A stretch of DNA of 64,000 bases from Chloropicon primus (lineage: Eukaryota): assembly GCA_023205875.1 (NCBI GenBank), contig CP060759.1:868001-932000 (forward strand), read 5' to 3'. Position 1 is the stretch's first letter. Each line of letters starts with the position of its first letter. The position numbers and the translations under genes were made by a program. The notes under the pieces were generated by a model. That model made no database searches, was not told the DNA's origin, and saw nothing but the letters and a program-made list of their open reading frames with translations. Of the stretch, positions 35,714 to 64,000 are shown piece by piece.

Positions 35714-35979
35714 GGGTGCTAGAATCGGGGTGGCACTTCGTGCGCGGGCGGGGTGGGGGCATTCTCCGCCCGGGTCGGTGCCCGGGAAAGGGACAAGGGG
35801 GTAGACGGGTGTGCCGTTGGTTTTTCACACAAACATCTTTAGAAGTAGAACAAGGAGGAGGTCGTTGGGGCATCTCATTTTTCAACAAATAAAACATGCT
35901 ACAACATAATACAATACTGCTCCTTGCTGACGCGCTTGGCCAGGCTGACCGTGGCCGCGGTTTAGGTTTCTGGTGGTTC

Positions 35980-36486
35980 TCAGAATATTCCAAACCTCCG
36001 CGGGGCTGGCTTCCCGCTCCGCCCTTCGAGCTCCTCCAGCCTGCTCAGCATCTCCCTCTGCTTCAGCTCGAGGTTGGCAATGATCGCCATCTGGTGTTCT
36101 TGCAGCCTCATCCTCTTCTCCTCCTTTTCTACCCTCCGCTTCTCTTTGTTCACCCTCTTCAGCTCGTCCCTCCTGTTGCTCCGGTCGTACTCGTACAGCA
36201 GCAGGCCCCCACCAACAGTGTAGATAAAACTTTCGGAGAAGAACTTCCCCGCCAGGTTCAGCGCCCGCTCGTCGTTCAGAGGCGATATCTCTGCGCCCTT
36301 CTTCTTCTCCTGGCCCCTTGCTGCCCTGTTGATCCTCACGTTCCACCTGTGGAGGACTTGAGCCCAATCGATCGCCCGCTGCCTCACCACCGGGTGGGAG
36401 AGCATGTAATCCTGGAAGACGTACGCCAAAGGCTTCGACGCCGTCTTCACCGTCATGGTGAACACTTTGATCGCAAGCTGCGCCAT
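35980..36486 (-). CDS. OPA3: OPA3-like protein
   Basis: VKTASKPLA, PLNDERALNLAGKFFSESFIYTVGGGLLLYEY and a coiled-coil tail. Confidence 0.85.
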   Translation of the reverse strand: MAQLAIKVFTMTVKTASKPLAYVFQDYMLSHPVVRQRAIDWAQVLHRWNVRINRAARGQEKKKGAEISPLNDERALNLAGKFFSESFIYTVGGGLLLYEYDRSNRRDELKRVNKEKRRVEKEEKRMRLQEHQMAIIANLELKQREMLSRLEELEGRSGKPAPRRFGIF

Positions 36487-36822
36487 CACAACCCCCGCAC
36501 CAGCCCCCTCCACACACCGTCCTCAACCAAGGCCACCACCAGGCTCCAATGCAATCCAAACCAAACCAAACCCGTTGCCTCCCTCTCCACCAACCCCCTT
36601 CTCTCTCTCGCCACCTCCGCCACTCCAGACGGCGGCAAACTCGTCGACTCCGAGCCTTGCCCCTCCCTTGCCTCGTCCCCACCGTCCTCCGCTTCGGGAC
36701 CGGGACGACGAACTCCGCTTCGACACGACCACCTTCGCTCCGCTCCTCGACAGACAGAGAGAGAGCGCGCGCGCGAGGGTGGTGGTGGTCGTGGGGAGGC
36801 AAAGGGCGGAAGGGGGGGGAGG

Positions 36823-42019: not shown

Positions 42020-45000
42020 TCAACTCTCGTACGCTGTCGTCTCGCTCCTCTCCACGTAGGACACGAAGTTCGACAAGATGGGAGCCACGGCCTGCGGAGC
42101 TTCCAAGTGAACGCAGTGGCCCGCCCCGGACACGACGTGGAGCTGAACATCCTGCGGCTGCAGGTGCGGGCTTTCTCTAGCAAGCTCGCACATCTCTTCC
42201 GATATAGAAACGTACTTTGGGTCCAACTCTCCGCACACCACACAAAGCGGGATCTCGAGGTCCCGCAGCTTGGGCCACAACGAGTCCTGCAGACCTGGGC
42301 TGAGGCCGCCCATCGCATCCGCCAGGCCCGAGCTCTCGTGCAGCTTCGCTCGCTTGCTCACGGTCGTCATGAATTGTGGGGACCTGGAAAAGCTCTCGAA
42401 AAGCGGCTGCTTGTACCACGAGTCCAGGAAAGACTCCACCCTCGTCTCCCTGATTTGGGCTGACAGCATGAGGTCTTTGATCGCTCTGTTCTCCCTTTCC
42501 GCCTCGTCCTTGATTCCGGGGCTGCTGGAGATGATCATCAAGCCAGAGTATTTCTCCGGGGAGGAGAGGACCATGTCCAACGCAATGCGTGCTCCCATGC
42601 TGTACGCCACCAGGATGGGTGTGTGCAGCGAGCTCTGATCCAGCAGCTCGGACATGGAGCGAGACGCGAAAGCAAAGGTGTTCTGCAGAGCCATGCTCTT
42701 CACGCACTCGAATGTGCAAGAGGAATGGCCTGGAAGGCTGACCGCGTAGCAATCGTTGGTGCTCGCCGTGCTCGAGATGAGGGGCAGCCAGTCGTGTACA
42801 TCACCCAGGAATCCATGGACAAAAGCAAGAGAGGGCGCAACACCAGCACTGGCGTGGACATGGCCATTCAACGAACCGTTCGTGCACTTGTACAGTTTCA
42901 TGAAACCTTCGTGAATCGACTGGTCGTGATCCAGTTCGCACTTCAGGCTGTCGTACAGAACGATGGAGTTGCTTGAGGAGAAGGGCAGAGCTTTGTGGGG
43001 GCCCGCCTGTTTCTCGACATCAATCACCAGGGACCTGGCCCAGCCTTCAAAGGGCAGTGACGTGGCCTCTTCCAGGAACAATCTGCCTTCGCGTGGCTCG
43101 TGGATGTTCCAAGCGATCGTTCCGAGGCCGTGGAGCAAAGGCGGTCTTCCTTCAAACCTGGCACCGCGCACCGAATCGACGTACAGCGCCAGCTCAGACA
43201 AGGAGCGCAGACCAACGCTGCTGTCGAATGCCGAGCTGACGATTGGCTTCACCCCCAGGTCCACACACAAGTCGACCAGCGACTTGAATTTCTCCACGCT
43301 TCCGAGGACAGAGGGTTTCAGGACGACCGCATCGAGGGAGCCTGAGAGGGGCGACATCAGCTCGGTGGCCCTCTCACGCACATCGGCCGCTGCCGTGTCC
43401 CGCAAGCGATCGCTGAGGTGCTCATCGAGGGCAACTGGAATCGTCTGAGCTCTCGTAAAGGCCTCTAGATCTGCAAGGTCCTTGACAGGCTCTTCGATGA
43501 ACTCGATCTCAAGCCCCTTGACTCCATCTGCAAACGTCAAGGCCTCGTCCAAAGTCCAGGCACGGTTTGCGTCGCATCGAAGGACGAGGTCAGATCCAAA
43601 TCTCTGAGAGATCAATCGAACCATCTCGATGTCTTTCTCGACCTCTGAACGCCCGACTTTGAGCTTGATTCCTCTGTAACCTCTCGACACCAGTCTCTCT
43701 GCGTCTTCCACCACGGTAGCCACATCAGAGGAAAGCAAGGAAAGCAAGCCAATCACGTGAACCAAGCCGCCGCGCTGCTGCAAAGCCCCCTCCACTTCCT
43801 CGCCCTGCCCCGCTCCCCCCATGACAGAGTAGCCAAGAGCAGACGACAGCAAGTCGAGCAGAGCGCTTTCGAGCCCAAACCTGACCGAGGGCAGCAAAGA
43901 ATCCGGCTCGATGCCAATGAGACTGAACCACCGCTCCAAGGAGCCATCCAAGGCCGCTACGGACAGCGGCAACCTCTTTCCTGGCAGAATGCTCGAGACG
44001 CACGCGAGTTGGCTCTGGGCCTCCTTCAGGGTCTCCCTGTGCAAGTTTTCCAGGGGCGAGACCTCCCCAAAGCTCGTGACAACTTTTCCTGCGTCTTTGT
44101 GCGAGGCCTGGATCGACACCTTCACCATTTCTTTGGCCATGCTCGAAGATGTCGTCAGCTCTTTCGCCAAGGGGTAAGACATCTTCTCGCACACCAGCCT
44201 GTCGATTTCGATGCAAGCTGGCCCCAGGCTCCACATGTGAGAGGCAAGAAAGACTTGCTGAGACGTGAAAACGCTGAGATCCTCCTTCACCCTTTCTTTG
44301 ACGAAATTTCTGAACTCTGTGCTCGCTTGAGGATCCACGCTTATCTCGATCACGTTGTGGACTTTTGATCTCCACGACTTCCGCAGAGCCTCGATCATGT
44401 CCTCCTTACTCGATACCAATTGGTGCGGTATCCTGTAAGCTCGGCAAAGGCTCGACACGTCGGCTTCAGGGTCCGTGATGAAGCACGAGTCGAGAACGGA
44501 GCTGTCGATCTGCTGAGCGACGGGGAGCATTTCAAAGATCCTTCCGCCTCGATTGTTGACGACGATGATGGTCAGCGGCGCCCTCTTCGAAGAGGAAGGC
44601 CCGCTCAACAGGTTCAGGCCATTCGAATCGTGCACAAAAGAGACGTCGCCGATCAGCAGGGTCACGGGGCTGCCAAGCGACTCTGCAAATCCAGCGGCGG
44701 AGCTCGTAACGCCATCGATGCCACTGCTTCCGCGGTTGCTGCCAAGAGCTACGAGGCCGCCATCGAATTCCGCATTTCTGTTGGCGCTGGACATCTCCAT
44801 GTCGCGGATCGGCATGCTGTTCCCCAAGAAGAGCGCGTTTGATCTCGGAATGATTTCACTTACCACCCTCGCGATGAGAGGCTCGCTCATCGTGTCCGCG
44901 CGCTCAAAGCAGGAATTCACGGAATTCGACACGATGTGGTCCAGCTCGAGGATGTACTTGCAGTAGATCTTGCATCCGGATGGGTCGAACTCGGGGTGCT

Positions 45001-47866
45001 CAAACGACCACGAGCGCACCATGTCGTTCAGGGCAACGGGGTCGAGCATCAACTGGTAAGAAGCAATGTGGGACGGGTCTCTCTGGCGCAGGTCGTTGCC
45101 GAGGATCACCAGCTTTGAGTTGCCATCCTGGCAGCTCTTTGAGATGAAATTGGAGATCCTTTTGGAGACTGGCTCTCTGCCTACTTGGATGATGCACTCC
45201 GGCTGCAGGTACGTGCTCGCCTCGGCGTCCAAGAGTATGTGGTCCAAGTTGTAAATGACGGTGGCTTTGGAATCCATTTTGCCTGACCCGAGCTTCAGAC
45301 CCGAAGATATGTCCGGTACAAGGGGCCACCCCAGTCTCTGGGCGGTCTCTATCAGCGCCAGGTTCTCTGACGCATTGGTGGAGGTGCCCACAATGATCAG
45401 ACCCTTTTTGCACTTTGAAACCGTGTCCATGAAATCCTCCCACGGCGCGAAATTCGTGCGACCCGACTCTCCCACAATCATGTTCGTCGTGTAAGGGAGG
45501 CCGCCGTCCGCCCACGCCCTGATCTTCCCATCCAGAACCCCCCTGTCCCACTCCTCGACGATCGGCGCGAGAGGCTCCCTGTACTGAAAGTTCAAGTGCA
45601 CCGGGCCAGGCAGGTTGTGAGTCGCGTATCTGTACGCCGTGGAGAGATTCGTCAGCAGCACGTCGCTCAAAGCGAGTTCTGGGGTCGGGGCCGGAAAGTT
45701 TCTGAACCAACGGGGGAACTTGCCGTAAATGTGCATCTGGTCTATCGTTTGGTTTGCCCCCGTGCCTTGGAGCTCAGCAGGCCTATCTGCTGTCAAGACA
45801 AGGAGGGGCACATTGGACTCACTCGCCTCGACGACAGCGGGCAGCAAATTCGCCACAGCGGTGCCCGAGGTCGTGATCACAGCCGCGGGCACCCCCTTCC
45901 CTTTGCCGATTCCGAGGGCGAAGAAGCCCAGGGATCTTTCGTCTATGCACGTGATCACCTCGGCCCTGGGGTGGTTCGCTGCCGCCAACACGAGCGGCGT
46001 GGATCTGCTTCCGGGAGCGATGCAAAAGTACTTCACACCGAGCCTGCAAAGCTCTTCCACGACAAGGAAGGCAGACAGAGCATTCGCGTTCGGGAAGCTC
46101 TCCAAGGCGAGCTTGCCTTGCCGCACGATCTGCGAGAACTGCTGCACCTTCAAGTCAAGCTCCTTCCACTCCAGGTCCGGCTTCGAGCCGTCCACGATCC
46201 CGACCCCAGCGTACATCACCAAATCGTTCTCGTTCCCCCTCTCCGGCTTGTTCTGCACGAGCGCGGATCTGATCGCGACCGCGAATTCTGAGCTCGACCC
46301 GGACATCCACCCAAAAGGCCCCGAATAGAGCCCCCTGTCAAAGCTCTCCATCGAAGCCAAGGCCTCCACGGACTCCTCGCAGGGGTACCCGGCCACTGCG
46401 GGCGTAGGGTGCAGCGCGGAAAGGAAGTGAAAGTCGTTCTTGCCCCTTGCAATCTTCCCAGACAACCTCCCGTACAGGTGCTGCACGTTGACGTGCTTCA
46501 AGACCTGCTTCTCTGCTTCGATCTCAACTTCGGTGCACAGGGACTCCAGGGCCTGCTTGATCGCGTCGCGCACAACAATGAACTCGTTGTGCTCCTTCTC
46601 TGACGTCAGGAGGTCCTTTGTCACCGAGGCGTCCTTTGACACCCGCGTGGTCGCGGCCACCGCCTCGCTGACGAGGCGGCCGCCGGCCCTCGCGTACAGG
46701 CGCTCCGGGGTGTTCCCAAAGAAGGCGCTGCCGCCGTCCAAAAGCATGCAGAACTGGTAGCCTTTCCTGTCCTGGTCTTGCAGGCACGACAGCATGTGCA
46801 AGGCGTCTACGGGCTGCCTGCAGGTGACCTTGGATCTCCTCGCGAGAACGAGCTTGCTCATCCTTCCCAAGACGTCGTTCACCAAGGGGTCCCACTCCTC
46901 CTCCGTCGGGTCGTGGGTGGCCTCGGAGGCCTCCAAGTGCACCGGTGCCCTGCCGCTGGCCTTGACGCCCCTCAGCCTGCTCAGGACCGCCCGCCCTTTC
47001 GACAGAGCGCCGTCGATGGAGTCTATCCTCTCCCCCTCGGTCCTCTGAGGGAGGTTATCCCAAGCGATGTTGCAGGCCAGCGTCGAGTGAGACGGCGTCG
47101 TCCGCAGCTCTACCGATGGAATCACAAAGGTGTACGAGCCGAACTCCTCCCACTCCTCTGAGGGCGTCTGGGTCGGATCGAATCGGATTCCCCCAAAGGC
47201 CCTGACCGCGTCCCCCCCCTCGCTCAGGAACCGGCTTATCCTGTCGTAAGATTCCAGATCGAAGGGTGATCCCGGCCGCCCCTGCCAGAGGCAAGTGGAC
47301 CCCACGCAGCCCACCTCGTGGTCCGCCCCCCCTCCGGCCCCCTCCGCCAAGTCGTCCAGCTTTCCCCCGGCAGTTTGCAGGCCCTCGCCGAACGTCGAAG
47401 TCTTCGGGGAGAAGTAGATCACGGGGTGCCCCTCCTTCAAGCTCTGGCCCCTGAGCCACCCGATCGTGTCCCCCTCGCGAGGAATCGTGACCTCCAGTCG
47501 GATGACGCCGCTCTCTTCCTCCGGCCGACTCTGCGAGATGTCTCTCAGGGCCTCGGAGAGCTTCTTCGCTCCCTGGTCGAAGCTGGACGCCACCCCGAGC
47601 TCCCTGCGAGCCACGGGGACGGGGCGGGACTCCGGCGAGAGCGCCTCGGCCTCCCGAAAGAAGGTATTGTCCTCGAGCACGCCGACATTAGGCGCCGAGG
47701 CCCGCGCGGGCAAGGGCCTCTTCCCAGAGGAGGAGACCAGTCTGCTGCTGCTGGCGAGCGAGCGACACCTCCTCGACGGCGACGAGGCCGGGCCTCGAGG
47801 AGGCGCGAGTCCCTCCTTCCCCCTCGCGGTGCTCGCCCTCAGGTGTGACGCCTTCCGCTCCATCAT
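42020..47866 (-). CDS. PHYLLO: PHYLLO, fused MenF-MenD-MenC-MenH phylloquinone biosynthesis protein
   Basis: ICS (GNTPERL, LHPTPAV, EFAVAIRS); MenD (PGSRSTPL, DERSLGF, TTSGTAVAN, NRGSSGIDG); MenC (KLKVGR, DANRAW, FIEEP, ALDE); MenH (HGFLG, YSMGAR, GHCVHLE). Confidence 0.95.
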   Translation of the reverse strand: MMERKASHLRASTARGKEGLAPPRGPASSPSRRCRSLASSSRLVSSSGKRPLPARASAPNVGVLEDNTFFREAEALSPESRPVPVARRELGVASSFDQGAKKLSEALRDISQSRPEEESGVIRLEVTIPREGDTIGWLRGQSLKEGHPVIYFSPKTSTFGEGLQTAGGKLDDLAEGAGGGADHEVGCVGSTCLWQGRPGSPFDLESYDRISRFLSEGGDAVRAFGGIRFDPTQTPSEEWEEFGSYTFVIPSVELRTTPSHSTLACNIAWDNLPQRTEGERIDSIDGALSKGRAVLSRLRGVKASGRAPVHLEASEATHDPTEEEWDPLVNDVLGRMSKLVLARRSKVTCRQPVDALHMLSCLQDQDRKGYQFCMLLDGGSAFFGNTPERLYARAGGRLVSEAVAATTRVSKDASVTKDLLTSEKEHNEFIVVRDAIKQALESLCTEVEIEAEKQVLKHVNVQHLYGRLSGKIARGKNDFHFLSALHPTPAVAGYPCEESVEALASMESFDRGLYSGPFGWMSGSSSEFAVAIRSALVQNKPERGNENDLVMYAGVGIVDGSKPDLEWKELDLKVQQFSQIVRQGKLALESFPNANALSAFLVVEELCRLGVKYFCIAPGSRSTPLVLAAANHPRAEVITCIDERSLGFFALGIGKGKGVPAAVITTSGTAVANLLPAVVEASESNVPLLVLTADRPAELQGTGANQTIDQMHIYGKFPRWFRNFPAPTPELALSDVLLTNLSTAYRYATHNLPGPVHLNFQYREPLAPIVEEWDRGVLDGKIRAWADGGLPYTTNMIVGESGRTNFAPWEDFMDTVSKCKKGLIIVGTSTNASENLALIETAQRLGWPLVPDISSGLKLGSGKMDSKATVIYNLDHILLDAEASTYLQPECIIQVGREPVSKRISNFISKSCQDGNSKLVILGNDLRQRDPSHIASYQLMLDPVALNDMVRSWSFEHPEFDPSGCKIYCKYILELDHIVSNSVNSCFERADTMSEPLIARVVSEIIPRSNALFLGNSMPIRDMEMSSANRNAEFDGGLVALGSNRGSSGIDGVTSSAAGFAESLGSPVTLLIGDVSFVHDSNGLNLLSGPSSSKRAPLTIIVVNNRGGRIFEMLPVAQQIDSSVLDSCFITDPEADVSSLCRAYRIPHQLVSSKEDMIEALRKSWRSKVHNVIEISVDPQASTEFRNFVKERVKEDLSVFTSQQVFLASHMWSLGPACIEIDRLVCEKMSYPLAKELTTSSSMAKEMVKVSIQASHKDAGKVVTSFGEVSPLENLHRETLKEAQSQLACVSSILPGKRLPLSVAALDGSLERWFSLIGIEPDSLLPSVRFGLESALLDLLSSALGYSVMGGAGQGEEVEGALQQRGGLVHVIGLLSLLSSDVATVVEDAERLVSRGYRGIKLKVGRSEVEKDIEMVRLISQRFGSDLVLRCDANRAWTLDEALTFADGVKGLEIEFIEEPVKDLADLEAFTRAQTIPVALDEHLSDRLRDTAAADVRERATELMSPLSGSLDAVVLKPSVLGSVEKFKSLVDLCVDLGVKPIVSSAFDSSVGLRSLSELALYVDSVRGARFEGRPPLLHGLGTIAWNIHEPREGRLFLEEATSLPFEGWARSLVIDVEKQAGPHKALPFSSSNSIVLYDSLKCELDHDQSIHEGFMKLYKCTNGSLNGHVHASAGVAPSLAFVHGFLGDVHDWLPLISSTASTNDCYAVSLPGHSSCTFECVKSMALQNTFAFASRSMSELLDQSSLHTPILVAYSMGARIALDMVLSSPEKYSGLMIISSSPGIKDEAERENRAIKDLMLSAQIRETRVESFLDSWYKQPLFESFSRSPQFMTTVSKRAKLHESSGLADAMGGLSPGLQDSLWPKLRDLEIPLCVVCGELDPKYVSISEEMCELARESPHLQPQDVQLHVVSGAGHCVHLEAPQAVAPILSNFVSYVERSETTAYES

Positions 47867-51849: not shown

Positions 51850-51892
51850 ATGATTCTAGGGGGAACTTGAAGCGTCACATGACGATGTACGG

Positions 51893-51955
51893 TGGAATTC
51901 TCCCCCTTCTGGAATTCTCCCTTCTGGAATTCTCCCCGTGGAATTCTCCCTTCTG
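51893..51955. repeat. Four tandem ~15-18 bp TGGAATTCTCCC units
   Basis: TGGAATTCTCCC(C)(TTC) x4 upstream of the MYB gene. Confidence 0.9.
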
Positions 51956-52031
51956 TCACTGGGCGTCACGTGCCCAGGAGAGAGAGCGAGAGAGAGCGAG
52001 AGAGAGAGAGAGAGAAAGAGAGAGAGACACC

Positions 52032-53021
52032 ATGGCGCCTCAGTCGTCAAAGACAAAGCACAAAGGCAGATGGAGTGCGGAGGAAGACAGGAAGCTCACC
52101 AGCGTCGTATCATTGTTTGGGAAGGGAAATTGGTCCAAAATCTCGCGCTATTTTAATCGTACTGGCAAGCAGTGTCGAGAGAGATGGCTGAATAAGCTTC
52201 AAATCGGCCTGAAGAAAGGGTGGACGAAGAAAGATGACCTGAGACTGATCGAGTTGCATCGACGATATGGCAACAAATGGGCCCTCATCAGCAAAGGTTT
52301 CGAAGGACAGAAGACGGAGAACATGGTTAAGAACCGATTTAATTCGACCCTGCGTAGGTTACAAGGCCGTAAGTCGAGTCGTCAGCGTAACGACGGACCA
52401 CTTTCCTTGTATACACAGTCACTTCTCACGAAGACTGATGTCAAATCGGAGGAAACCAACGACACAGCTCCAAGCTCAGACATGAGTGACTCAGTTTGCA
52501 CTGCACAAGAGTTTCTTCTTGATGACAACGGTGGCACATCAGCGGAGTGGGACCTTTTCGGTGACTTCTATCACCTTGAAAGCAGTCCTTATCAACCACC
52601 GTTCATGCAATCAGAGCAAGAGTTTTTTGAGTTTGCTACTGAAGGAGAGCTGTTTGGAGAGAAATCAGTCGTTGTATCGCGAAAGAGACACCACAGATAT
52701 GGACAATTCTTCCTGCTCTCTTCACAGTTGGAGTTCAATGAAGCAATTAAGATGTTGTTGAACAGAGGGACTGTGAGCTATTTTGAAGTTGCTTTGGATG
52801 CAGCGGCAGTTTCGGCAGACCCAGACAAAGTCGACGCGATTTTATCTGCAGTCCACAACCTTTTGCCATCAGTTCATCAGCTAAAGACTTGCGATTTAGC
52901 GGCCTTTTTGAGCGAGGCAGTCTTGAAATGTGCCTTGATTACTGATGAGAAGGGAAGCTGCTCCAAAGTTCAAAAGTCTTTTCAGGACTCCGTTGCAGAT
53001 GTTATGACCGCGATGTTATGA
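52032..53021 (+). CDS. R2R3-type MYB transcription factor
   Basis: KGRWSAEEDRKL..GNWSKIS..RTGKQCRERWLNKL and WTKKDDLRLIELHRRYGNKWALIS..TENMVKNRFN; ATG at 52032 after a (GA)n leader. Confidence 0.9.
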   Translation: MAPQSSKTKHKGRWSAEEDRKLTSVVSLFGKGNWSKISRYFNRTGKQCRERWLNKLQIGLKKGWTKKDDLRLIELHRRYGNKWALISKGFEGQKTENMVKNRFNSTLRRLQGRKSSRQRNDGPLSLYTQSLLTKTDVKSEETNDTAPSSDMSDSVCTAQEFLLDDNGGTSAEWDLFGDFYHLESSPYQPPFMQSEQEFFEFATEGELFGEKSVVVSRKRHHRYGQFFLLSSQLEFNEAIKMLLNRGTVSYFEVALDAAAVSADPDKVDAILSAVHNLLPSVHQLKTCDLAAFLSEAVLKCALITDEKGSCSKVQKSFQDSVADVMTAML

Positions 53022-53237: not shown

Positions 53238-56200
53238 ATGCCAGAACCAAAGGTTAGGCAAGCTGTCCGTGGCGATGCAATAAATGTTCGCAAAATCGAT
53301 CACCTCACCTGGCCTGAGAATCTGTGGCTTAAAGACAAGGACTTTCAGTTCTACTTCGAATCGTATCTCGAGGGTCAGTTCGTAGTGGAGTGTGGCGACA
53401 GAGTCGTTGGCTGTCTATTCACTCAAAGACTTGACAACGAGTCAACTCTTCTTGATGATGGAAAGACAAGCTCAGACTTTACATCTTTGCACCAGGGCGA
53501 GGGCAAGGTGATTCAGTTGATAAGGATATCTGTCCTCCCCCAGTACGAAGGTTTAGGTTTAAGCCATGCCCTTATCGAAGGATCATTGGAACACTTAAAA
53601 AAACAACAGGGATCAATTGAAAAGGTTGTTGCAGTGACAAGGTGTTCTCAGTTCAAAGCAGCTGGCGCATACCCATACGATGACTACGTCTATAGCGGTC
53701 GCGATCCCACGATAGCTTTCCATGTTGGTAGGGGTGCTGAAGTTGTGAAGATACTTCACAACTTTCGGCTTGAAGACACTCAAAATGATGGACACGGTGT
53801 TCTTATTCGATACAGCTTGAAGACAAACACCGATTCCAACTTTGACCAGTCAACTAGTCAGCTTCAGTTTAGTCGTGATGACGCCGAATCTCGTATCAAA
53901 GACGCCGTTCGGAGAATAGCACAATCTTCTGAAGAGCCTGCTCTAGATGAACCATTGATAGAGTATGGTTTAGATTCCATTGACTTTAGCGGTTTAAAAG
54001 CCAGCTTGGAAAACATCTTTTCCATCAGCTTGGAAGCTACCTTCTTGTTTAGCTATCCAACCGTCCAACAGATCGCGGCCTACGTGGTAGATCAAAATAA
54101 AAATACCGGTAGCAAAGCCAAAGCTTTGGAAGTTGAACTCCCTGATGGATCCTTGACAAAAAGGAGCCCCAATTACTCAGAAGCTATTTGGATAATAGAC
54201 ACTGCTGAAAGACTTCCCGCTGCCATTGAAGTTGGCGGATTTAAAGAGGCAGTTTCTCACGTCCCTTTGAACCGGTGGGACCCCACCGGTTTTGAAGAAG
54301 TCATTGCCCAACAAAGTGGTGTCACTTCTGGTTCTTTTGGTATCTTCCTGCACCTTCATGAGTGTGATATTCATGGGATATCACAGAAAGAGGCTCTTCA
54401 GACCGACCCACAGCAATTGCTCATCATAGAAAATGCTCAGAATCTGAAACGTGCTTCTTGTCCAAAGCACGACGGGGAAATCGGTGTAGCTGCTGCAGTG
54501 TCGAACTTTGACTTTGCAGTACTTCAACAGAAGATCAAGCCGGTTGAGTCGCAGACACATAGCACCCTCATTGGTTCAGACCTGTCTGTCTGCTGCGGGA
54601 AAGTCTCGTACCTTTTGAATTTCAATGGGCCAAGTTATGTGGTGAATACAGCATGCTCCTCTTCTCTTGTGGCTACAAATGCAGCGATGCACTGTCTCAG
54701 GAATTTTGAGTGTCAGCTTCACTTCGTTCTCTCTGCAAGCACTATTCTATCCCCCCACGTAATGGTGGCTTACGCCAAAATGGGAATGCTGTCTATCGAT
54801 GGGAGGTGTCAATCCTTCGACCAGCAAGCGAACGGATACGTGCGAGCAGAAGCAAGCGTTGGTGTAAACCTGGGAATGGCCTCTGGTTCAGGAGTTGCCA
54901 TTGTTGCATCATCCGTACAACAAGATGGAAGGAGCGCAGGACTCACAGCACCAAATGGAATTGCTCAGCAAAAGCTACTGCTTCGCACTTCAATGGATGC
55001 TGATGTGCCTTTGAGTGACATTCAACACCAGGAGATGCACGCAACTGGTACACCGCTCGGCGACCCCATTGAGTACCAAGCATTCAAGCAAGCTCTTAGA
55101 TCGTCGTCACATGAAATGGGCTTTATCATATCAGTGAGTGGCACGAAAGCCATAGCAGGGCACGGGGAGCCATGTGCAGGGCTTTCGAGTACTCTCCGAA
55201 TCATCAAATCATCATTGAAAGCAAAGAAAATAGTCAACAACCGATTGAGATCAATGAACAAACACTTTGGCCCTGATATGATGGGGAGCAACCTCATTTT
55301 TCCTACTGTGAATGGATCAGCAGCACTCAGTAGCTCATACGCAGGTATCAATTCATTTGCATTCCAAGGCACGATCGCCCGCCTTTTGCTCAAATTTGAT
55401 AAAGGCAATGAAAGACCAGCGACACGCAAGGCACTCTGCAAGAAGCTCATCTCCTTCAAATGCGTTTCATATTGTAGCAGCAAAGTATTGGTAAGCAGCG
55501 GATCAAAAAAACTTTGCTTACATCTGAAACCAAAATTTGGACAGTTCACAATAGAAGGAAAAAGAGTCTTAACATTTGCCCAGATGTACTCATATCTTCA
55601 AATCGGCTACAATGATCTTTGCCAAGAGACCACCAAACAGAAAGCTGTAACGGCCGATATGGTTCAAACAAGAGTCATGCACATCGACTACAGGCAACAT
55701 CAAATGATGCAATGTACGGTGGACACAGTGACCGGACAAGTAGAACTCCAATCCCAAGCAGAAGGGAAAAGTCACAAAACCTGGAATCTCCAAGCCATAT
55801 GGAAGAAACCAGTCAAACACTTGCCAGAGCGCCAAACCACACACCAAGATCAAAACGAGTGGAACAAAGGCATCATGGGTATAATGCACCACAATCAAGC
55901 TGCACACACAGCCAATGCAATTGCAACAGTCGCCAAAACATCAAATGACCTCTATGATTACACCGTCAACCCAGCTGTGGGCGACGCAAATCTACAGCTT
56001 GGTGCCGTGGAAAGCGTGATTCGTTTGGCGAGCCAAGACAATGCTAGTCAAGAAACGCAAGTACCAACGGGTTGCCATGCCTATTACATGGGCGACCAGT
56101 CAGATGCTCCAGCAGCATACACGGCAGTCTGTCAGAATGGCTCCCAAGCTGGCATCTCAAGCCATAGACTAAAAAGTCTATGTGAAGAGATCAACTGTGC

Positions 56201-59200
56201 CTCAGTTCTCAATTTGCAAACCAAAGCAGCATTTAAATTGCAAAGTGCTTTGAATGCAGCCAACAGCCAACAGAAAGTGCAAGAAAAGGACATGCTCTTA
56301 TCGGCTTTGGTGTGGTCAGCCTGCTATGCGACCCCTCTGGACTGCGCTGCTCATCAAAATGCAATAATCGCAGGATCAAGGGACGCACAAGAGAATGTGC
56401 TTCTCGTGAAACTTGGAGACGCGCAATCCAATTTGGAGCATCCTCTCAAGATTGCATGCAGAAATGCAGGAGCTCTCTATTCATCATCTCATGTGGATAG
56501 TCCTGAAATGCAAGAGTACCTGACAAACACCTCAAAGTCGGTCCACGTTGTTTGCCTTGTCTCGCACCAAGCAAATGTTGCAAAGCAACTTGTAGGCCTT
56601 GCCAACCTTGTCAAAGCGGTGAACAAGTCAAACATGGAATCACCTAGTATCACTGTGGTTTTCTTGGATTCACAAACGACCATGAACGTCCAACACAACA
56701 CCTCAAAAGCATTGTGGGGAGCATGCAGGACGATGAGAATGGAGTACCCATCCTTGCAATTGACAACCATTCAAATGGATGCACACATGGACAAGAGTCA
56801 GGCAGCTCTTTACCTCTTGTCAGAAATCCAAAACAAACATTCAACTGAAAAGGAAGTCATGTACAAGAATGCGACACGATACATCAATACCATTGTGGAG
56901 AAGTATCCTTCTGCATCACAGCATCTCTCCCTCAATCCACATCTGGAAAAGCTCCAGAGAGGATCATATGTTATCACAGGAGGTCTTGGAGGTCTGGGTC
57001 TTGTGACCGCGCAACTTCTTGCAGATATGGGAGCGACAAGCATATCTCTCCTCTCAAGAAGTGGCATCATTCAGCGCACGGACCAAAACCTTAATGCCAT
57101 TCTCGACAAAGTAAGAGAGAAAGCCAATGTGGAGGTTATCGCATGTGATGTGAGCAAAGAAGATCATGTGCGCAATCTCTACACAAAGCAAAACCATCCT
57201 TGTGTGGGAATTATACATGCTGCCGGTGTCTTACGAGATGGCCTTGCTGCAAATCTCAACCATACTCAGGTCCAACAGGTATTTGACCCAAAGATCAGTG
57301 GCGCTTTGCATTTGCATCACAACACACTCCTGCAGCCATTGCAGGTATGCATCATGTTCTCCTCCATAGTGTCACTCTATGGAAACATTGGTCAGACCTC
57401 CTACAGTGCAGCAAATACCTATCTTGATACTTTGGCTGCTCTAAGGCAAAACCAAGGCCTTCCTGCGGTCAGCATACAATGGCCAGCAATATCTGGCATT
57501 GGCATGTGGGAAGGTCTATCAAGTGTCCACAAGAAAACATTTGAATTCAACCTTCCCGTAAAGGCCGTTATATCGTGCCTTCAAAATCTTGTGTCAAAGA
57601 AATCCTTCACAATCACAACCGTGACGATTTTACCAAGGTGGATGATCTACGGAACCAGGGAAAAGAACAAAGCACACATGGCAGCAAAGGCGGATCCAAA
57701 TGAAATCCAGCGGCAGCCAACAAGCGGAAGAAGCCAGAGCGTCAAATTCACATCTGTAGCTGTGTTGACTTCCCAAGTGCAAAATACAATTGAGCAAGCA
57801 GTCATAGATACTATTGGAGAAACCATTGACACGGAAAGTCCTCTCATGGAAGCAGGAGTCGACTCGCTTGCTTCATCAGAGCTTATCAACAAGATCAATG
57901 ATGACATGGGAACCTCTTTGGGGCCCACAATCTTGTTCGACTATCCAACAATTCAGGATCTCACACAGCACCTTGTGCAGACCCTCAAAGGACCTGACGC
58001 TACAGATCACGCCATTGAGGCTGTGGAGCGCATCCCAAACCATGATCCAATGCATGCTGTGACAACAACAATGCTGTCTTCTGCTATCAGATATCCAAAC
58101 CATACAAATTCAAACCAAAGGTTCTTGAATGTCCTTAACAACCAGTCCGAGCTTTGCTCAGTCACTCCACTTCAACGGTGGGACCGCATGGATTGGTATT
58201 CCTCACAGGGCTATGGGAACGACATCTATGTGCCCTTTGGATACTGGCTTCCAGACCTCTGGACCTTCCAACCTGATGCACTAAGCATGACTTCCGCAGA
58301 ATCCCTTTATGTGGACCCACAAGGAAGGAAGCTCCTGGAGGTCACATGGGAGGCCATGTACAACACTCCTCTATCTTCAAACAAACATGCCAGAACAAAT
58401 ACAGGTGTTTATGTAGGATGTTGTCAACAGGATTTCCAAAAAAATATCCATCACATGACAGACCCAGGGAAACAAATACTGGCATCCATAAGCTTCCTTT
58501 GTGGTCGTGTTTCTTATGTGATGGGCTTCAAAGGACCATGCATCAGCATAGATACTGCATGTTCCTCCTCGCTTGCAGCAACTCACTTGGGCAGGACAGC
58601 CATTATAGCACATGAATGTGATACAGCAACAATAGCAGGAACAAATATAATGATTGCACCACAAACAACGCAAGCTATTTGCAATTTGCAAGCCCTTGCC
58701 GTGGATGGAAGATGCAAAACCCTTGATGCAACTGCAAATGGATATGGCCGTGCCGAAGCTATTGCTGCCGTAATCATTGCAAATGCAAACGATACACACA
58801 CGAACATGCTCAAAATGCCTGTCAACATCGTTGCATCTTTTGTGAACCAAGATGGAAGATCAAGCAGTCTGACTGCACCAAATGGGCCATCACAGTCAAC
58901 ACTCATCTCATCTGCTTTGAGGCAAGCAAATCTGAAGCCAGAACAAATCAACCATGTTGTCATGCATGGAACAGGAACACCTCTGGGTGACCCAATTGAG
59001 GTTGGTGCCCTGGGACAAGCATTCCATTCAGATGACAAAGTTCATATGCTTGCACTTGCTGCAGTCAAGGTTGCTTTCGGACATACAGAAGGAGCAGCAG
59101 GACTCACGGGCCTACTTAGTGCAATGCAGTCGTGTAGCACGTTATGCATTCAACCGGTTACCGCATGCAGAAACATGAATGTTCATGTGCAGGGTGCAAT

Positions 59201-62200
59201 CAAAGATCATAGAGATGGGCACAAAAGAGTCACTTCTGCAAGGATTCAACAAGGTCCTTGGTCATTCACTTGTGATGAAAACAATGACAAAGCAATCGCA
59301 GGGACAAGCTCGTTTGGCATGAGCGGAGTCAACAGTCACGGGGTTGTTGAAGCAAAACTTGCAGGCCATACTTACAATGCGCAGAGTATTGCATGGAACA
59401 ACAAGCAAGTACTCTTCCCAATGGTTGGGTGTGCATTTGTGAAGGCTTCCTACAAAGCATCTACAAAACAACACCAAGTATTTGCGATTCAAATCAAGGA
59501 CCACAACCTGCTCGACCACATGGTCATGGGGAAATCCATTTTACCAGGTGCAGGATTCATGGAACTGTCATCAGCCTCTGCACGAGCTATGCTCAATCCA
59601 AACGTCTTACGTGATCTCAAACCAGTGCTTGCAAAGATATCAATTCCAGCCCCGATGCAGTTGGAACCAAACAAACATCAAATGATGCAATGTACGGTGG
59701 ACACAGTGACCGGACAAGTAGGACTGAAAAGTCACAAAACCTGGAATCTCCAAGCCATATGGAAGAAACCAGTCAAACACTTGCCAGAGCGCCAAACCAC
59801 ACACCAAGATCAAAACGAGTGGAACAAAGGCATCATGGGTATAATGCACCACAATCAAGCTGCACACACAGCCAATGCAATTGCAACAGTCGCCAAAACA
59901 TCAAATGACCTCTATGATTACACCGTCAACCCAGCTGTGGGCGACGCAAATCTACAGCTTGGTGCCGTGGAAAGCGTGATTCGTTTGGCGAGCCAAGACA
60001 ATGCTAGTCAAGAAACGCAAGTACCAACGGGTTGCCATGCCTATTACATGGGCGACCAGTCAGATGCTCCAGCAGCATACACGGCAGTCTGTCAGAATGG
60101 CTCCCAAGCTGGCATCTCAAGCCATAGACTAAAAAGTCTATGTGAAGAGATCAACTGTGCCTCAGTTCTCAATTTGCAAACCAAAGCAGCATTTAAATTG
60201 CAAAGTGCTTTGAATGCAGCCAACAGCCAACAGAAAGTGCAAGAAAAGGACATGCTCTTATCGGCTTTGGTGTGGTCAGCCTGCTATGCGACCCCTCTGG
60301 ACTGCGCTGCTCATCAAAATGCAATAATCGCAGGATCAAGGGACGCACAAGAGAATGTGCTTCTCGTGAAACTTGGAGACGCGCAATCCAATTTGGAGCA
60401 TCCTCTCAAGATTGCATGCAGAAATGCAGGAGCTCTCTATTCATCATCTCATGTGGATAGTCCTGAAATGCAAGAGTACCTGACAAACACCTCAAAGTCG
60501 GTCCACGTTGTTTGCCTTGTCTCGCACCAAGCAAATGTTGCAAAGCAACTTGTAGGCCTTGCCAACCTTGTCAAAGCGGTGAACAAGTCAAACATGGAAT
60601 CACCTAGTATCACTGTGGTTTTCTTGGATTCACAAACGACCATGAACGTCCAACACAACACCTCAAAAGCATTGTGGGGAGCATGCAGGACGATGAGAAT
60701 GGAGTACCCATCCTTGCAATTGACAACCATTCAAATGGATGCACACATGGACAAGAGTCAGGCAGCTCTTTACCTCTTGTCAGAAATCCAAAACAAACAT
60801 TCAACTGAAAAGGAAGTCATGTACAAGAATGCGACACGATACATCAATACCATTGTGGAGAAGTATCCTTCTGCATCACAGCATCTCTCCCTCAATCCAC
60901 ATCTGGAAAAGCTCCAGAGAGGATCATATGTTATCACAGGAGGTCTTGGAGGTCTGGGCCTTGTGACCGCGCAACTTCTTGCAGATATGGGAGCGACAAG
61001 CATATCTCTCCTCTCAAGAAGTGGCATCATTCAGCGCACGGACCAAAACCTTAATGCCATTCTCGACAAAGTAAGAGAGAAAGCCAATGTGGAGGTTATC
61101 GCATGTGATGTGAGCAAAGAAGATCATGTGCGCAATCTCTACACAAAGCAAAACCATCCTTGTGTGGGAATTATACATGCTGCCGGTGTCTTACGAGATG
61201 GCCTTGCTGCAAATCTCAACCATACTCAGGTCCAACAGGTATTTGACCCAAAGATCAGTGGCGCTTTGCATTTGCATCACAACACACTCCTGCAGCCATT
61301 GCAGGTATGCATCATGTTCTCCTCCATAGCTTCACTCTATGGAAACATTGGTCAGACCTCCTACAGTGCAGCAAATACCTATCTTGATACTTTGGCTGCT
61401 CTAAGGCAAAACCAAGGCCTTCCTGCGGTCAGCATACAATGGCCAGCAATATCTGGCATTGGCATGTGGGAAGGTCTATCAAGTGTCCACAAGAAAACAA
61501 CACCGTTCACGCTGTCTGTCGAGGGAGCTATCACATCTCTCAATAAGATTCTGAAGGACCTTTCATCCTTCACAATCACAACCGTGACGATTTTACCAAG
61601 GTGGATGATCTACGGAACCAGGGAAAAGAACAAAGCACACATGGCAGCAAAGGCGGATCCAAATGAAATCCAGCGGCAGCCAACAAGCGGAAGAAGCCAG
61701 AGCGTCAAATTCACATCTGTAGCTGTGTTGACTTCCCAAGTGCAAAATACAATTGAGCAAGCAGTCATAGATACTATTGGAGAAACCATTGACACGGAAA
61801 GTCCTCTCATGGAAGCAGGAGTCGACTCGCTTGCTTCATCAGAGCTTATCAACAAGATCAATGATGACATGGGAACCTCTTTGGGGCCCACAATCTTGTT
61901 CGACTATCCAACAATTCAGGATCTCACACAGCACCTTGTGCAGACCCTCAAAGGACCTGACGCTACAGATCACGCCATTGAGGCTGTGGAGCGCATCCCA
62001 AACCATGATCCAATGCATGCTGTGACAACAACAATGCTGTCTTCTGCTATCAGATATCCAAACCATACAAATTCAAACCAAAGGTTCTTGAATGTCCTTA
62101 ACAACCAGTCCGAGCTTTGCGCAGTCACTCCACTTCAACGGTGGGACCGCATGGATTGGTATTCCTCACAGGGCTATGGGAACGACATCTATGTGCCCTT

Positions 62201-64000
62201 TGGATACTGGCTTCCAGACCTCTGGACCTTCCAACCTGATGCACTAAGCATGACTTCCGCAGAATCCCTTTATGTGGACCCACAAGGAAGGAAGCTCCTG
62301 GAGGTCACATGGGAGGCCATGTACAACACTCCTCTATCTTCAAACAAACATGCCAGAACAAATACAGGCGTTTATGTAGGATGTATGTACACAGAGTACC
62401 CACATATCCTGAAGGGGGCAAACATGGCAAACAATGCTGGTACAGGTACTGGAAGCGGCATTAGCTTCCTTTGTGGTCGTGTTTCTTATGTGATGGGCTT
62501 CAAAGGACCATGCATCAGCATAGATACTGCATGTTCCTCCTCCCTTGCAGCAACTCACTTGGGCAGGACAGCCATTATAGCACATGAATGTGATACAGCA
62601 ACAATAGCAGGAACAAATATAATGATTGCACCACAAACAACCCAAGGTGTTTGCAATTTGCAAGCCCTTGCCGTGGATGGAAGATGCAAAACCCTTGATG
62701 CAACTGCAAATGGATATGGCCGTGCCGAAGCTATTGCTGCCGTAATCATTGCAAATGCAAACGATACACACACGAACATGCTCAAAATGCCTGTCAACAT
62801 CGTTGCATCTTTTGTGAACCAAGATGGAAGATCAAGCAGTCTGACTGCACCAAATGGGCCATCACAGTCAACACTCATCTCATCTGCTTTGAGGCAAGCA
62901 AATCTGAAGCCAGAACAAATCAACCATGTTGTCATGCATGGAACAGGAACACCTCTGGGTGACCCAATTGAGGTTGGTGCCCTGGGACAAGCATTCCATT
63001 CAGATGACAAAGTTCATATGCTTGCACTTGCTGCAGTCAAGGTTGCTTTCGGACATACAGAAGGAGCAGCAGGACTCACGGGCCTACTTAGTGCAATGCA
63101 GTCGTGTAGCACGTTATGCATTCAACCGGTTACCGCATGCAGAAACATGAATGTTCATGTGCAGGGTGCAATCAAAGATCATAGAGATGGGCACAAAAGA
63201 GTCACTTCTGCAAGGATTCAACAAGGTCCTTGGTCATTCACTTGTGATGAAAACAATGACAAAGCAATCGCAGGGACAAGCTCGTTTGGCATGAGCGGAG
63301 TCAACAGTCACGGGGTTGTTGAAGCAAAACTTGCAGGCCATACTTACAATGCGCAGAGTATTGCATGGAACAACAAGCAAGTACTCTTCCCAATGGTTGG
63401 GTGTGCATTTGTGAAGGCTTCCTACAAAGCATCTACAAAACAACACCAAGTATTTGCGATTCAAATCAAGGACCACAACCTTCTGAGCTACATGGTCATG
63501 GGGAAATCCATTTTACCAGGTGCAGGATTCATGGAACTGTCATCAGCCTCTGCACGAGCTATGCTTAATCCAAACGTCTTACGTGATCTCAAACCAGTGC
63601 TTGCAAAGATATCAATTCCAGCCCCGATGCAGTTGGAACCAAACAAACATCAAATGATGCAATGTACGGTGGACACAGTGACCGGACAAGTAGGACTGAA
63701 AAGTCACAAAACCTGGAATCTCCAAGCCATATGGAAGAAACCAGTCAAACACTTGCCAGAGCGCCAAACCACACACCAAGATCAAAACGAGTGGAACAAA
63801 GGCATCATGGGTATAATGCACCACAATCAAGCTGCACACACAGCCAATGCAATTGCAACAGTCGCCAAAACATCAAATGACCTCTATGATTACACCGTCA
63901 ACCCAGCTGTGGGCGACGCAAATCTACAGCTTGGTGCCGTGGAAAGCGTGATTCGTTTGGCGAGCCAAGACAATGCTAGTCAAGAAACGCAAGTACCAAC
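53238..64000 (+). CDS. Giant modular trans-AT type I polyketide synthase, 3'-partial: GNAT-ACP-KS-DH0-KR-ACP-KS-DH-KR-ACP-KS-DH0-...
   Basis: My translation from ATG 53238; all checked motifs lie in one frame: GNAT VVAVTR..AFH; ACP GLDS (53976); KS NTACSSS (54654), HATGT (55038), GHGE (55161); KR TGGLGGLG, LRD (57231), YSAAN (57402); ACP GVDS (57864, 61827); KS DTACSSS (58560, 62532); DH HxxxGxxxxP (59517); no AT domain between KS and DH. Confidence 0.93.
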   Translation, partial: MPEPKVRQAVRGDAINVRKIDHLTWPENLWLKDKDFQFYFESYLEGQFVVECGDRVVGCLFTQRLDNESTLLDDGKTSSDFTSLHQGEGKVIQLIRISVLPQYEGLGLSHALIEGSLEHLKKQQGSIEKVVAVTRCSQFKAAGAYPYDDYVYSGRDPTIAFHVGRGAEVVKILHNFRLEDTQNDGHGVLIRYSLKTNTDSNFDQSTSQLQFSRDDAESRIKDAVRRIAQSSEEPALDEPLIEYGLDSIDFSGLKASLENIFSISLEATFLFSYPTVQQIAAYVVDQNKNTGSKAKALEVELPDGSLTKRSPNYSEAIWIIDTAERLPAAIEVGGFKEAVSHVPLNRWDPTGFEEVIAQQSGVTSGSFGIFLHLHECDIHGISQKEALQTDPQQLLIIENAQNLKRASCPKHDGEIGVAAAVSNFDFAVLQQKIKPVESQTHSTLIGSDLSVCCGKVSYLLNFNGPSYVVNTACSSSLVATNAAMHCLRNFECQLHFVLSASTILSPHVMVAYAKMGMLSIDGRCQSFDQQANGYVRAEASVGVNLGMASGSGVAIVASSVQQDGRSAGLTAPNGIAQQKLLLRTSMDADVPLSDIQHQEMHATGTPLGDPIEYQAFKQALRSSSHEMGFIISVSGTKAIAGHGEPCAGLSSTLRIIKSSLKAKKIVNNRLRSMNKHFGPDMMGSNLIFPTVNGSAALSSSYAGINSFAFQGTIARLLLKFDKGNERPATRKALCKKLISFKCVSYCSSKVLVSSGSKKLCLHLKPKFGQFTIEGKRVLTFAQMYSYLQIGYNDLCQETTKQKAVTADMVQTRVMHIDYRQHQMMQCTVDTVTGQVELQSQAEGKSHKTWNLQAIWKKPVKHLPERQTTHQDQNEWNKGIMGIMHHNQAAHTANAIATVAKTSNDLYDYTVNPAVGDANLQLGAVESVIRLASQDNASQETQVPTGCHAYYMGDQSDAPAAYTAVCQNGSQAGISSHRLKSLCEEINCASVLNLQTKAAFKLQSALNAANSQQKVQEKDMLLSALVWSACYATPLDCAAHQNAIIAGSRDAQENVLLVKLGDAQSNLEHPLKIACRNAGALYSSSHVDSPEMQEYLTNTSKSVHVVCLVSHQANVAKQLVGLANLVKAVNKSNMESPSITVVFLDSQTTMNVQHNTSKALWGACRTMRMEYPSLQLTTIQMDAHMDKSQAALYLLSEIQNKHSTEKEVMYKNATRYINTIVEKYPSASQHLSLNPHLEKLQRGSYVITGGLGGLGLVTAQLLADMGATSISLLSRSGIIQRTDQNLNAILDKVREKANVEVIACDVSKEDHVRNLYTKQNHPCVGIIHAAGVLRDGLAANLNHTQVQQVFDPKISGALHLHHNTLLQPLQVCIMFSSIVSLYGNIGQTSYSAANTYLDTLAALRQNQGLPAVSIQWPAISGIGMWEGLSSVHKKTFEFNLPVKAVISCLQNLVSKKSFTITTVTILPRWMIYGTREKNKAHMAAKADPNEIQRQPTSGRSQSVKFTSVAVLTSQVQNTIEQAVIDTIGETIDTESPLMEAGVDSLASSELINKINDDMGTSLGPTILFDYPTIQDLTQHLVQTLKGPDATDHAIEAVERIPNHDPMHAVTTTMLSSAIRYPNHTNSNQRFLNVLNNQSELCSVTPLQRWDRMDWYSSQGYGNDIYVPFGYWLPDLWTFQPDALSMTSAESLYVDPQGRKLLEVTWEAMYNTPLSSNKHARTNTGVYVGCCQQDFQKNIHHMTDPGKQILASISFLCGRVSYVMGFKGPCISIDTACSSSLAATHLGRTAIIAHECDTATIAGTNIMIAPQTTQAICNLQALAVDGRCKTLDATANGYGRAEAIAAVIIANANDTHTNMLKMPVNIVASFVNQDGRSSSLTAPNGPSQSTLISSALRQANLKPEQINHVVMHGTGTPLGDPIEVGALGQAFHSDDKVHMLALAAVKVAFGHTEGAAGLTGLLSAMQSCSTLCIQPVTACRNMNVHVQGAIKDHRDGHKRVTSARIQQGPWSFTCDENNDKAIAGTSSFGMSGVNSHGVVEAKLAGHTYNAQSIAWNNKQVLFPMVGCAFVKASYKASTKQHQVFAIQIKDHNLLDHMVMGKSILPGAGFMELSSASARAMLNPNVLRDLKPVLAKISIPAPMQLEPNKHQMMQCTVDTVTGQVGLKSHKTWNLQAIWKKPVKHLPERQTTHQDQNEWNKGIMGIMHHNQAAHTANAIATVAKTSNDLYDYTVNPAVGDANLQLGAVESVIRLASQDNASQETQVPTGCHAYYMGDQSDAPAAYTAVCQNGSQAGISSHRLKSLCEEINCASVLNLQTKAAFKLQSALNAANSQQKVQEKDMLLSALVWSACYATPLDCAAHQNAIIAGSRDAQENVLLVKLGDAQSNLEHPLKIACRNAGALYSSSHVDSPEMQEYLTNTSKSVHVVCLVSHQANVAKQLVGLANLVKAVNKSNMESPSITVVFLDSQTTMNVQHNTSKALWGACRTMRMEYPSLQLTTIQMDAHMDKSQAALYLLSEIQNKHSTEKEVMYKNATRYINTIVEKYPSASQHLSLNPHLEKLQRGSYVITGGLGGLGLVTAQLLADMGATSISLLSRSGIIQRTDQNLNAILDKVREKANVEVIACDVSKEDHVRNLYTKQNHPCVGIIHAAGVLRDGLAANLNHTQVQQVFDPKISGALHLHHNTLLQPLQVCIMFSSIASLYGNIGQTSYSAANTYLDTLAALRQNQGLPAVSIQWPAISGIGMWEGLSSVHKKTTPFTLSVEGAITSLNKILKDLSSFTITTVTILPRWMIYGTREKNKAHMAAKADPNEIQRQPTSGRSQSVKFTSVAVLTSQVQNTIEQAVIDTIGETIDTESPLMEAGVDSLASSELINKINDDMGTSLGPTILFDYPTIQDLTQHLVQTLKGPDATDHAIEAVERIPNHDPMHAVTTTMLSSAIRYPNHTNSNQRFLNVLNNQSELCAVTPLQRWDRMDWYSSQGYGNDIYVPFGYWLPDLWTFQPDALSMTSAESLYVDPQGRKLLEVTWEAMYNTPLSSNKHARTNTGVYVGCMYTEYPHILKGANMANNAGTGTGSGISFLCGRVSYVMGFKGPCISIDTACSSSLAATHLGRTAIIAHECDTATIAGTNIMIAPQTTQGVCNLQALAVDGRCKTLDATANGYGRAEAIAAVIIANANDTHTNMLKMPVNIVASFVNQDGRSSSLTAPNGPSQSTLISSALRQANLKPEQINHVVMHGTGTPLGDPIEVGALGQAFHSDDKVHMLALAAVKVAFGHTEGAAGLTGLLSAMQSCSTLCIQPVTACRNMNVHVQGAIKDHRDGHKRVTSARIQQGPWSFTCDENNDKAIAGTSSFGMSGVNSHGVVEAKLAGHTYNAQSIAWNNKQVLFPMVGCAFVKASYKASTKQHQVFAIQIKDHNLLSYMVMGKSILPGAGFMELSSASARAMLNPNVLRDLKPVLAKISIPAPMQLEPNKHQMMQCTVDTVTGQVGLKSHKTWNLQAIWKKPVKHLPERQTTHQDQNEWNKGIMGIMHHNQAAHTANAIATVAKTSNDLYDYTVNPAVGDANLQLGAVESVIRLASQDNASQETQVP
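55696..64000 (+). repeat. Tandem ~3.96-3.97 kb near-identical PKS module repeats (2 full copies plus the start of a 3rd)
   Basis: AACATCAAATGATGCAATGTACGGTGGACACAG recurs at ~55696, ~59674 and ~63646; offsets 3960-3978 bp, all multiples of 3; identical short shadow ORFs recur in the track. Confidence 0.97.

Follow-up and report, generated by a model that had tools for sequence, protein, structure and literature searches.

Positions 53238-64000 of the window, the 64,000-nt stretch of Chloropicon primus DNA analysed here (contig CP060759.1, positions 868,001 to 932,000), hold the start of an acyltransferase-less (AT-less) modular polyketide synthase (PKS). Reading motifs, architecture and patch positions directly from the DNA, and inferring from them the activities, the number of modules (about five) and the product, we give a probability of roughly 55% to the following account: the gene specifies a short assembly line of near-identical modules in which small islands set the chemistry, with a dehydratase (DH) that is off in module 1 and on in module 2 and a product of about C12. 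The islands fall on the catalytic DH histidine and on a ketosynthase (KS) loop that is known to check substrates.

Gene architecture and module repeats

A single ORF runs from 53238 to the window end, with 3,587 aa visible and the 3′ end open. Pfam gives the order GNAT-ACP-KS1-(DH1)-KR-ACP-KS2-DH2-KR-ACP-KS3-DH3, with DH1 in brackets in the Pfam result (Table 1). No acyltransferase family was found in Pfam scans of eight segments and of the protein records P0125 and P0130. As expected of a trans-AT modular type I PKS, there is no AT, the KSs carry Cys-His-His, the ACPs carry GxDS, and the line ends in a thioesterase (TE), the last as read from P0125 and P0130, which are presumed parts of the same gene. 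The GNAT domain matches CurA (E = 3.6e-28) and conserves the VVAVT Thr and the FH His, which we take to be the catalytic residues of CurA/GphF-type GNAT loading decarboxylases; given this match and the retained residues, an acetyl starter made by decarboxylation is likely.

The PKS stretch has a GC content of 46%, compared to 53-64% in the 2-kb bins up to 52000, and the ORF has a GC3 of 0.45, compared to 0.70 and 0.77 for two neighbour genes. Low GC at C. primus PKS loci was noted by Lemieux et al. 2019 (PMC6731263). A two-repeat Myb gene (51867-53021; GC3 0.52) lies just 5′ of the PKS in the same low-GC stretch and may be a regulator.

Table 1. Features of the PKS gene within the window (window coordinates).
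Feature	Position	Strand	Remarks
5′ part of AT-less modular type I PKS ORF	53238..63998	+	GC 46%, GC3 0.45
GNAT-like loading domain, CurA/GphF type	53289..53822	+	VVAVT and FH residues align with CurA
Loading ACP (GLDS)	53892..54086	+	
KS1, diverged from KS2/KS3	54180..55397	+	Cys-His-His motifs NTAC, EMH, AGH
DH1 degenerate motif FTIEGKRVLT	55545..55574	+	His to Phe, Pro to Thr; Asp motif at 55971 kept
Homogenised tandem tract	55698..64000	+	period ~3960-3972 nt, 97.6% identical
KR1	56961..57494	+	LRD 57231, YSAAN 57402
KR1 tail patch (FEFNLPVKAVISCLQNLVSKK), unlike that of KR2	57540..57602	+	
ACP1	57795..57974	+	
KS2	58083..59354	+	Cys-His-His intact
KS2 patch A, G-CCQQ-DF	58406..58490	+	gatekeeping positions 1-4, shorter loop
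KS2 patch B (TQAI)	58670..58677	+	
DH2	59424..60278	+	His 59517, Asp 59943; predicted double-hotdog fold
KR2	60921..61454	+	LRD 61191, YSAAN 61362
KR2 tail patch (TPFTLSVEGAITSLNKILKDLS)	61500..61564	+	
ACP2	61758..61937	+	
KS3	62046..63323	+	Cys-His-His intact
KS3 patch A, G-CMYT-EY, VMYH-like (Met2, Tyr3)	62369..62462	+	
KS3 patch B (TQGV)	62642..62649	+	
DH3 patch, Asp-His to Ser-Tyr	63482..63491	+	Tyr codon 63489; Asp motif 63903 kept

From 55698 on, the modules are 97.6% identical over 4,353 nt. Four places hold clustered differences, namely the KR tail, the two KS patches A and B, and the DH motif; the remainder consists of seven isolated single changes and, in module 1, one short insertion. 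The His region of DH1 lies upstream of the homogenised tract, and ACP1 and ACP2 lie inside it. The KR-tail segment, which may be a further switch, has three versions (module 1, module 2 and the reductase modules), and a V1378/A difference is located near the KR active site. The likeness of the modules is likely kept by gene conversion or recent duplication, and the small islands likely set the chemistry of each step. Gene conversion has been published for bacterial PKSs in the form of GRINS (PMC8256042), and module duplication for algal PKSs (Shelest et al. 2015, PMC4661987). As in bacterial GRINS, there are long tracts of more than 80% identity between modules, with duplications longer than 500 bp; GRINS also need both mean absolute skews to exceed 0.15, whereas here the TA skew is 0.172 and the GC skew only 0.099 (0.10 when rounded), so that the tract was rejected as an example.

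Dehydratase states and the ketosynthase loop

A preliminary description of this DNA had read an off-on-off dehydratase programme from the HxxxGxxxxP motif, and its motif assignments are borne out at the residue level. Phe770 and Thr779 of DH1 align with the motif His and Pro; His2094 of DH2 is intact; Tyr3418 takes the place of the His of DH3 in nearly identical DNA; and both visible KRs have the LRD and YSAAN motifs. LRD presumably marks B-type KRs, which by motif rules give a D-hydroxyl and an E-alkene. The KR-to-alkene rule on which the predicted E-alkene rests is published (PMC7327777).

DH2 has the HxxxGxxxxP His and the DxxxQ/H Asp of active PKS dehydratases and keeps all six columns (His, Gly, Pro, Pro, Asp and Pro) that are invariant in 14 out of 14 aligned DHs. 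Its structure model, made from a 31-sequence alignment (pLDDT 68.9), has the double-hotdog fold and resembles the CurF and CurK DHs with TM scores of about 0.6 (CurF DH: E = 4.6e-11, TM 0.60); among the matches is an entry titled H996F inactive mutant, which carries the same change as DH1. The YGP helix motif, which is common but not universal in PKS DHs, is absent from DH2 as well as from most of the 14 closest relatives aligned, several algal ones among them. All three DHs share one version of the catalytic Asp motif, PAVGDANLQ, while DH1 and DH3 show the loss of the catalytic His that defines a DH0 (Phe770 and Tyr3418).

In module 3, the CTG CTC GAC CAC of module 2 has become CTT CTG AGC TAC, i.e., 5 of 8 nt are changed, two of them synonymously, and a near-invariant Asp and the His are both removed. 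The chance expectation for such a cluster is 3e-9 to 1.5e-7. DH2 and DH3 are alike at all but two residues over the 183 aa compared (aa 3405-3587). When the fetched proteins were searched with a strict form of the motif, 214 of the 216 matches had His at this site, one had Asn and one Tyr, the latter from the window itself. The sequence thus supports an inactive DH1 followed by an active DH2 well; the third off state is weaker, although DH3, with Ser-Tyr, is likely inactive as a dehydratase. As in naturally inactive DHs (PMC7327777), the His is replaced while the Asp and a double-hotdog remnant are kept, but here the on and off copies DH2 and DH3 are almost the same protein.

KS patch A follows GVYVG and lines up with the VMYH and TNGQ motifs, occupying positions 1-4 of the loop at the dimer interface. 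Mutagenesis has shown that VMYH selects enoyl over hydroxy intermediates, mainly via Met2, and TNGQ marks hydroxy-accepting KSs (Ray et al. 2024, PMC11321453). The loop reads CCQQ in KS2, after the dead DH1; CMYT in KS3, after DH2; and CMST in the KS that follows a reductase-bearing module (in P0130). KS3 has the Met2 and Tyr3 of the VMYH type, with Thr instead of His at position 4. KS2 has Gln4 but Cys2 instead of Asn2, and likely acts like a TNGQ-type, hydroxy-accepting KS without being a member of that group. The loop positions are those of the cis-AT VMYH/TNGQ KSs (PMC11321453), and so is the pattern of Met2-Tyr3 after an active DH and of Gln4 without Met2 after a dead one. Unlike these, the C. 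primus KSs are eukaryotic, trans-AT and otherwise almost identical, CCQQ lacks Asn2, and CMST after the reductase module is a third state.

For the two junctions visible in the window, the hydroxy-versus-enoyl reading is well supported by the loop residues. The earlier proposal that the KS2 and KS3 patches fit hydroxy versus enoyl intermediates therefore stands for patch A at both junctions but not for patch B, and with patch B a strict correlation between DH state and the next KS breaks down: TQGV precedes the Tyr DH in the window and a His DH in P0130, and TQAI is found together with CCQQ as well as with CMYT (window and P0002). Patch B was rejected as a marker of DH state, given that the same versions occur across DH states.

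As a control, 603 KS junctions of fetched PKSs were classed with home-made profiles, and the motif could be read in 528 junctions from 224 proteins, with the records of this gene excluded. In AT-bearing PKSs, Met2 is present at 72 of 90 junctions after a KR and a His-containing DH, at 7 of 108 without such a DH and at 0 of 8 with an enoylreductase (ER); the corresponding AT-less counts are 25 of 73, 14 of 95 and 0 of 12. Because the proteins are related and the classes rough, these counts indicate a trend only. In AT-less PKSs, the class that is relevant here, the rule for Met2 holds far less well. In another C. primus PKS, P0140 (QDZ22813.1), all four KSs read IEHM at the gatekeeping loop, and its three readable junctions follow KR-only modules.

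The third module

The one readable junction of a His-less DH with the next KS fits CCQQ. To judge from contig depth, the CCQQ arm represents 0.24-0.31 of the KS depth, i.e., about one copy among approximately 3.5-4 downstream KSs (in run X1 61.9, derived from two bins, where single-copy contigs have 58-66; in run X3 76.3, compared to 283-316 for the KS flanks). Since this copy is used by KS2, those runs are unlikely to have another CCQQ KS behind module 3, an argument that holds if the runs counted carry the Tyr module, as strains may differ. On that condition, KS4 is probably CM[Y/S]T and not of the hydroxy type. By the Met2 rule such a KS should resist a hydroxyl, and the correlation between DH state and the next KS would fail at module 3.

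This Met2-type KS4 is also what would be expected if the hydroxyl of module 3 is lost in spite of a dead DH3, with a neighbouring or a double-dehydrating downstream DH removing it and giving an off-on-on product (a diene). Such an outcome has perhaps one chance in five. ACP1 and ACP2 lie in the near-identical tract, as would suit service by a neighbouring DH. His-to-Phe changes silenced only four of six monensin DHs and failed in the other two (PMC7327777), and in type B dehydrating bimodules one DH can eliminate twice (PMC8456789), so that a dead DH3 need not leave a hydroxyl. However, the type B architecture, KS-KR-ACP-KS//DH-ACP-KR, is not seen here, where the order is KS-DH-KR-ACP; a Tyr without effect would presumably have been erased by conversion; and the runs that were counted may lack the Tyr module altogether.

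That last point bears on a second and less probable alternative: the module with Tyr would be a defect confined to some strains or to one haplotype, or else an additional module produced by unequal crossing-over. The gene would then usually be off-on-(on)-reduced-reduced, with a Tyr copy that is neutral or stalls. Deep runs X1-X5 show only His at the DH patch, with no Tyr arm in any of the five. This does not amount to absence of Tyr, because the MYT arm is missing from these contigs as well. With a minimum frequency of 0.2, the published variant table has no entry at the DH patch or at patch B, so that no variant of 20% or more is reported there; the module with the KR2-type tail has a non-integer depth (1.2-1.5) in a diploid alga; and the only Tyr among the motif matches is, as above, that of the window. 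On the other hand, clustered changes that include synonymous ones and hit both conserved residues are not a fresh point mutation; the two synonymous changes would instead fit an older, retained island. In addition, contigs of run X6 (depth 2) end or start at 62368, 62650, 63481 and 63567, each of which flanks one module-2/3 difference of the window, including the Tyr patch, although the variant arms themselves are not displayed. X6 contigs break at 63820 as well, where the window has no module difference, and read T across 62121, unlike module 3 of the window, and therefore cannot be copies of that module. Homolog searches (proteins of 728-6278 aa) gave no record spanning module 3 to KS4, and a 20-nt pattern scan of metagenome contigs yielded four loci, none of which matches the PKS. 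Overall, the Tyr patch is probably real.

Later modules, the late reductase and the predicted product

Two further protein records are presumed to come from the part of the gene beyond the window. P0125 comprises DH end-KR-reductase-ACP-TE, and P0130 (UPR01215.1) comprises reductase end-ACP-KS(CMST)-DH(His)-KR-reductase-ACP-TE; the latter is likely on the same chromosome as the PHYLLO protein of the window. P0002 agrees with the window at all but four scattered residues and goes out of frame at K3380. For the two syntenic genes, 9 of the 12 published variant rows fall inside the window, where all nine meet the corresponding base under a single offset, one of them after a shift of +1; one of the nine records the insertion of one base at the K3380 codon, carried by 94.6% of reads. 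Given these mapped variants, the gene is probably one ORF that was split into separate records by an assembly error.

Depth in run X1 per single copy is ~4.6-5.2 for DH/KR, 3.1-3.7 for the downstream KS and 2.1-2.3 for the reductase junctions. Contig depth is a rough proxy and no true copy number, but these values point to about five modules, two of them with a reductase. Only parts with contig cover were counted, and two runs presumed to be RNA that cover the stretch were left aside. At 63777, module 3 shares Gln with modules 1 and 2, and P0130 has Glu in its reductase module; this hints weakly that module 3 may lack a reductase.

The reductase follows the catalytic KR and precedes the ACP (P0125 613-962 and P0130 1422-1771, both beyond the window), an order found for 2 of the 60 ER hits in the fetched PKSs, both from this gene. 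Canonical PKS enoylreductases lie before the KR and are closest to other PKS ERs, neither of which applies here: the match to human ZADH2/PTGR3 is full length (phmmer, E = 1e-62, 215 bits), whereas the best PKS ER has 30% identity and 90 bits (BLASTP). By sequence, the reductase thus resembles stand-alone medium-chain reductases of the PTGR3/ZADH2 kind rather than PKS ERs, and unlike those it is fused into PKS modules. In a published table, seven algae have best reductase hits of E-55 to E-75, and the remaining five have hits of E-12 to E-22, of which three are listed for PKS genes as well. A metagenome fragment with 50% identity (P0237) ends in what is apparently the same KR-to-reductase junction. 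For the reductase, the ESM Atlas yielded no more than generic quinone-oxidoreductase clusters. Among the matches listed in a search that lay mostly outside subscription papers, none reports a graft of ZADH2 or a prostaglandin reductase into a PKS. If correct, a PTGR3-like reductase in PKS modules would represent an independent origin of the ER step.

Taken together, the domains suggest the following course. The GNAT domain likely loads acetyl. Module 1, without its DH His, would leave a hydroxyl that KS2 accepts through its CCQQ loop, and module 2, with His and Asp intact, would form an E-alkene that KS3 selects through the VMYH-like CMYT loop. The Ser-Tyr DH of module 3 is itself likely inactive as a dehydratase. 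The two later modules with the PTGR3-like reductase likely give saturated carbons, one of them passing its chain to the CMST KS, and the TE would release a chain of about C12 as an acid or a lactone. With five modules, a C12 chain would carry an 11-OH, an 8-ene and either a 7-OH or a 6-ene, followed by saturated carbons; if the hydroxyl of module 3 survives, 7,11-dihydroxy-dodec-8-enoic acid or a lactone of it would result. We predict a C10-C12 hydroxy-enoic acid or lactone; the skeleton of the C12 chain is presumably similar to that of recifeiolide, a lactone from fungi. The literature examined names no product of this gene.

The polyol/polyene pattern that had been proposed is not indicated, given that a line of about five modules, two with a reductase, ends in KR-reductase-ACP-thioesterase. 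This ending also makes it very improbable that the original model holds in full, with a strict off-on-off polyol/polyene programme and every KS patch tracking DH state: patch A does fit at both visible junctions, but patch B does not track DH state and CCQQ is approximately single-copy. An assembly or polishing artefact in the near-identical repeat is the most remote explanation of the Tyr patch, since, despite the split gene records (P0002 out of frame at K3380, P0130 starting inside an ER) and the fact that no run directly displays the Tyr-site letters CTTCTGAGCTAC, the patch keeps the frame within hundreds of bases free of errors, no donor for it was found in the rest of the window, and its first base is where X6 contigs break.

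Known systems and neighbouring genes

Loss of the DH His, copying of modules and KS gatekeeping have all been described before. What is new is that nearly isogenic modules diverge at small islands, and the presence of a grafted reductase. A tentative generalisation, to which we give somewhat less than even odds, is that concerted evolution has erased all differences between the modules except for the switches: a loop code (CCQQ for hydroxy, CMYT for enoyl and CMST for saturated intermediates), a two-residue DH off-switch and a PTGR3/ZADH2-type reductase grafted behind the KR. Gatekeeping rules for KSs derive mainly from actinomycete cis-AT systems, whose KSs differ from one another at many residues. 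The near-identity of the KSs, DHs and ACPs in the present line means that each of the few differences can be tested singly on a natural background. If the generalisation is right, nature would have supplied an isogenic set of modules for the study of PKS gatekeeping, together with a new way to reach full reduction. The line is short enough, with its predicted C10-C12 product, to be expressed and checked.

Among the closest published parallels are the trans-AT PKSs of Ostreococcus and Micromonas (PMC4661987), which are likewise AT-less and non-iterative, with near-identical modules in one gene; unlike in that account, the residual differences are mapped here to the DH His and the KS loop. The available passages of that paper contain no discussion of islands, GNAT loading (0 occurrences) or the KR-then-reductase order. 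Lemieux et al. 2019 (PMC6731263) list a syntenic chromosome 6 PKS gene followed by an "alcohol dehydrogenase", i.e., a split locus with fewer modules, and the parts of their paper seen hold no module-level analysis. PKZILLA is a far larger algal line (10.1101/2024.01.29.577497). Among the matches listed for Chloropicon and polyketides, none concerns the modules of this gene, as judged by titles and the starts of abstracts.

Several other genes in the window deserve mention. A 722-aa ORF (3416-5584) has HTH_OrfB_IS605 and Cas12f1-like TNB domains and is TnpB/Fanzor-like; the published C. primus genome paper lists 25 IS605-like genes. A telomerase reverse transcriptase with RNA-binding and RT domains is located at 35896-40665, and a PHYLLO-type menaquinone/phylloquinone fusion gene at 42020-47866, the protein of which clusters with QDZ21991.1 of C. 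primus. Finally, positions 23812-25167 encode a sialyltransferase-like member of glycosyltransferase family 29, a family that is reported as expanded in C. primus.
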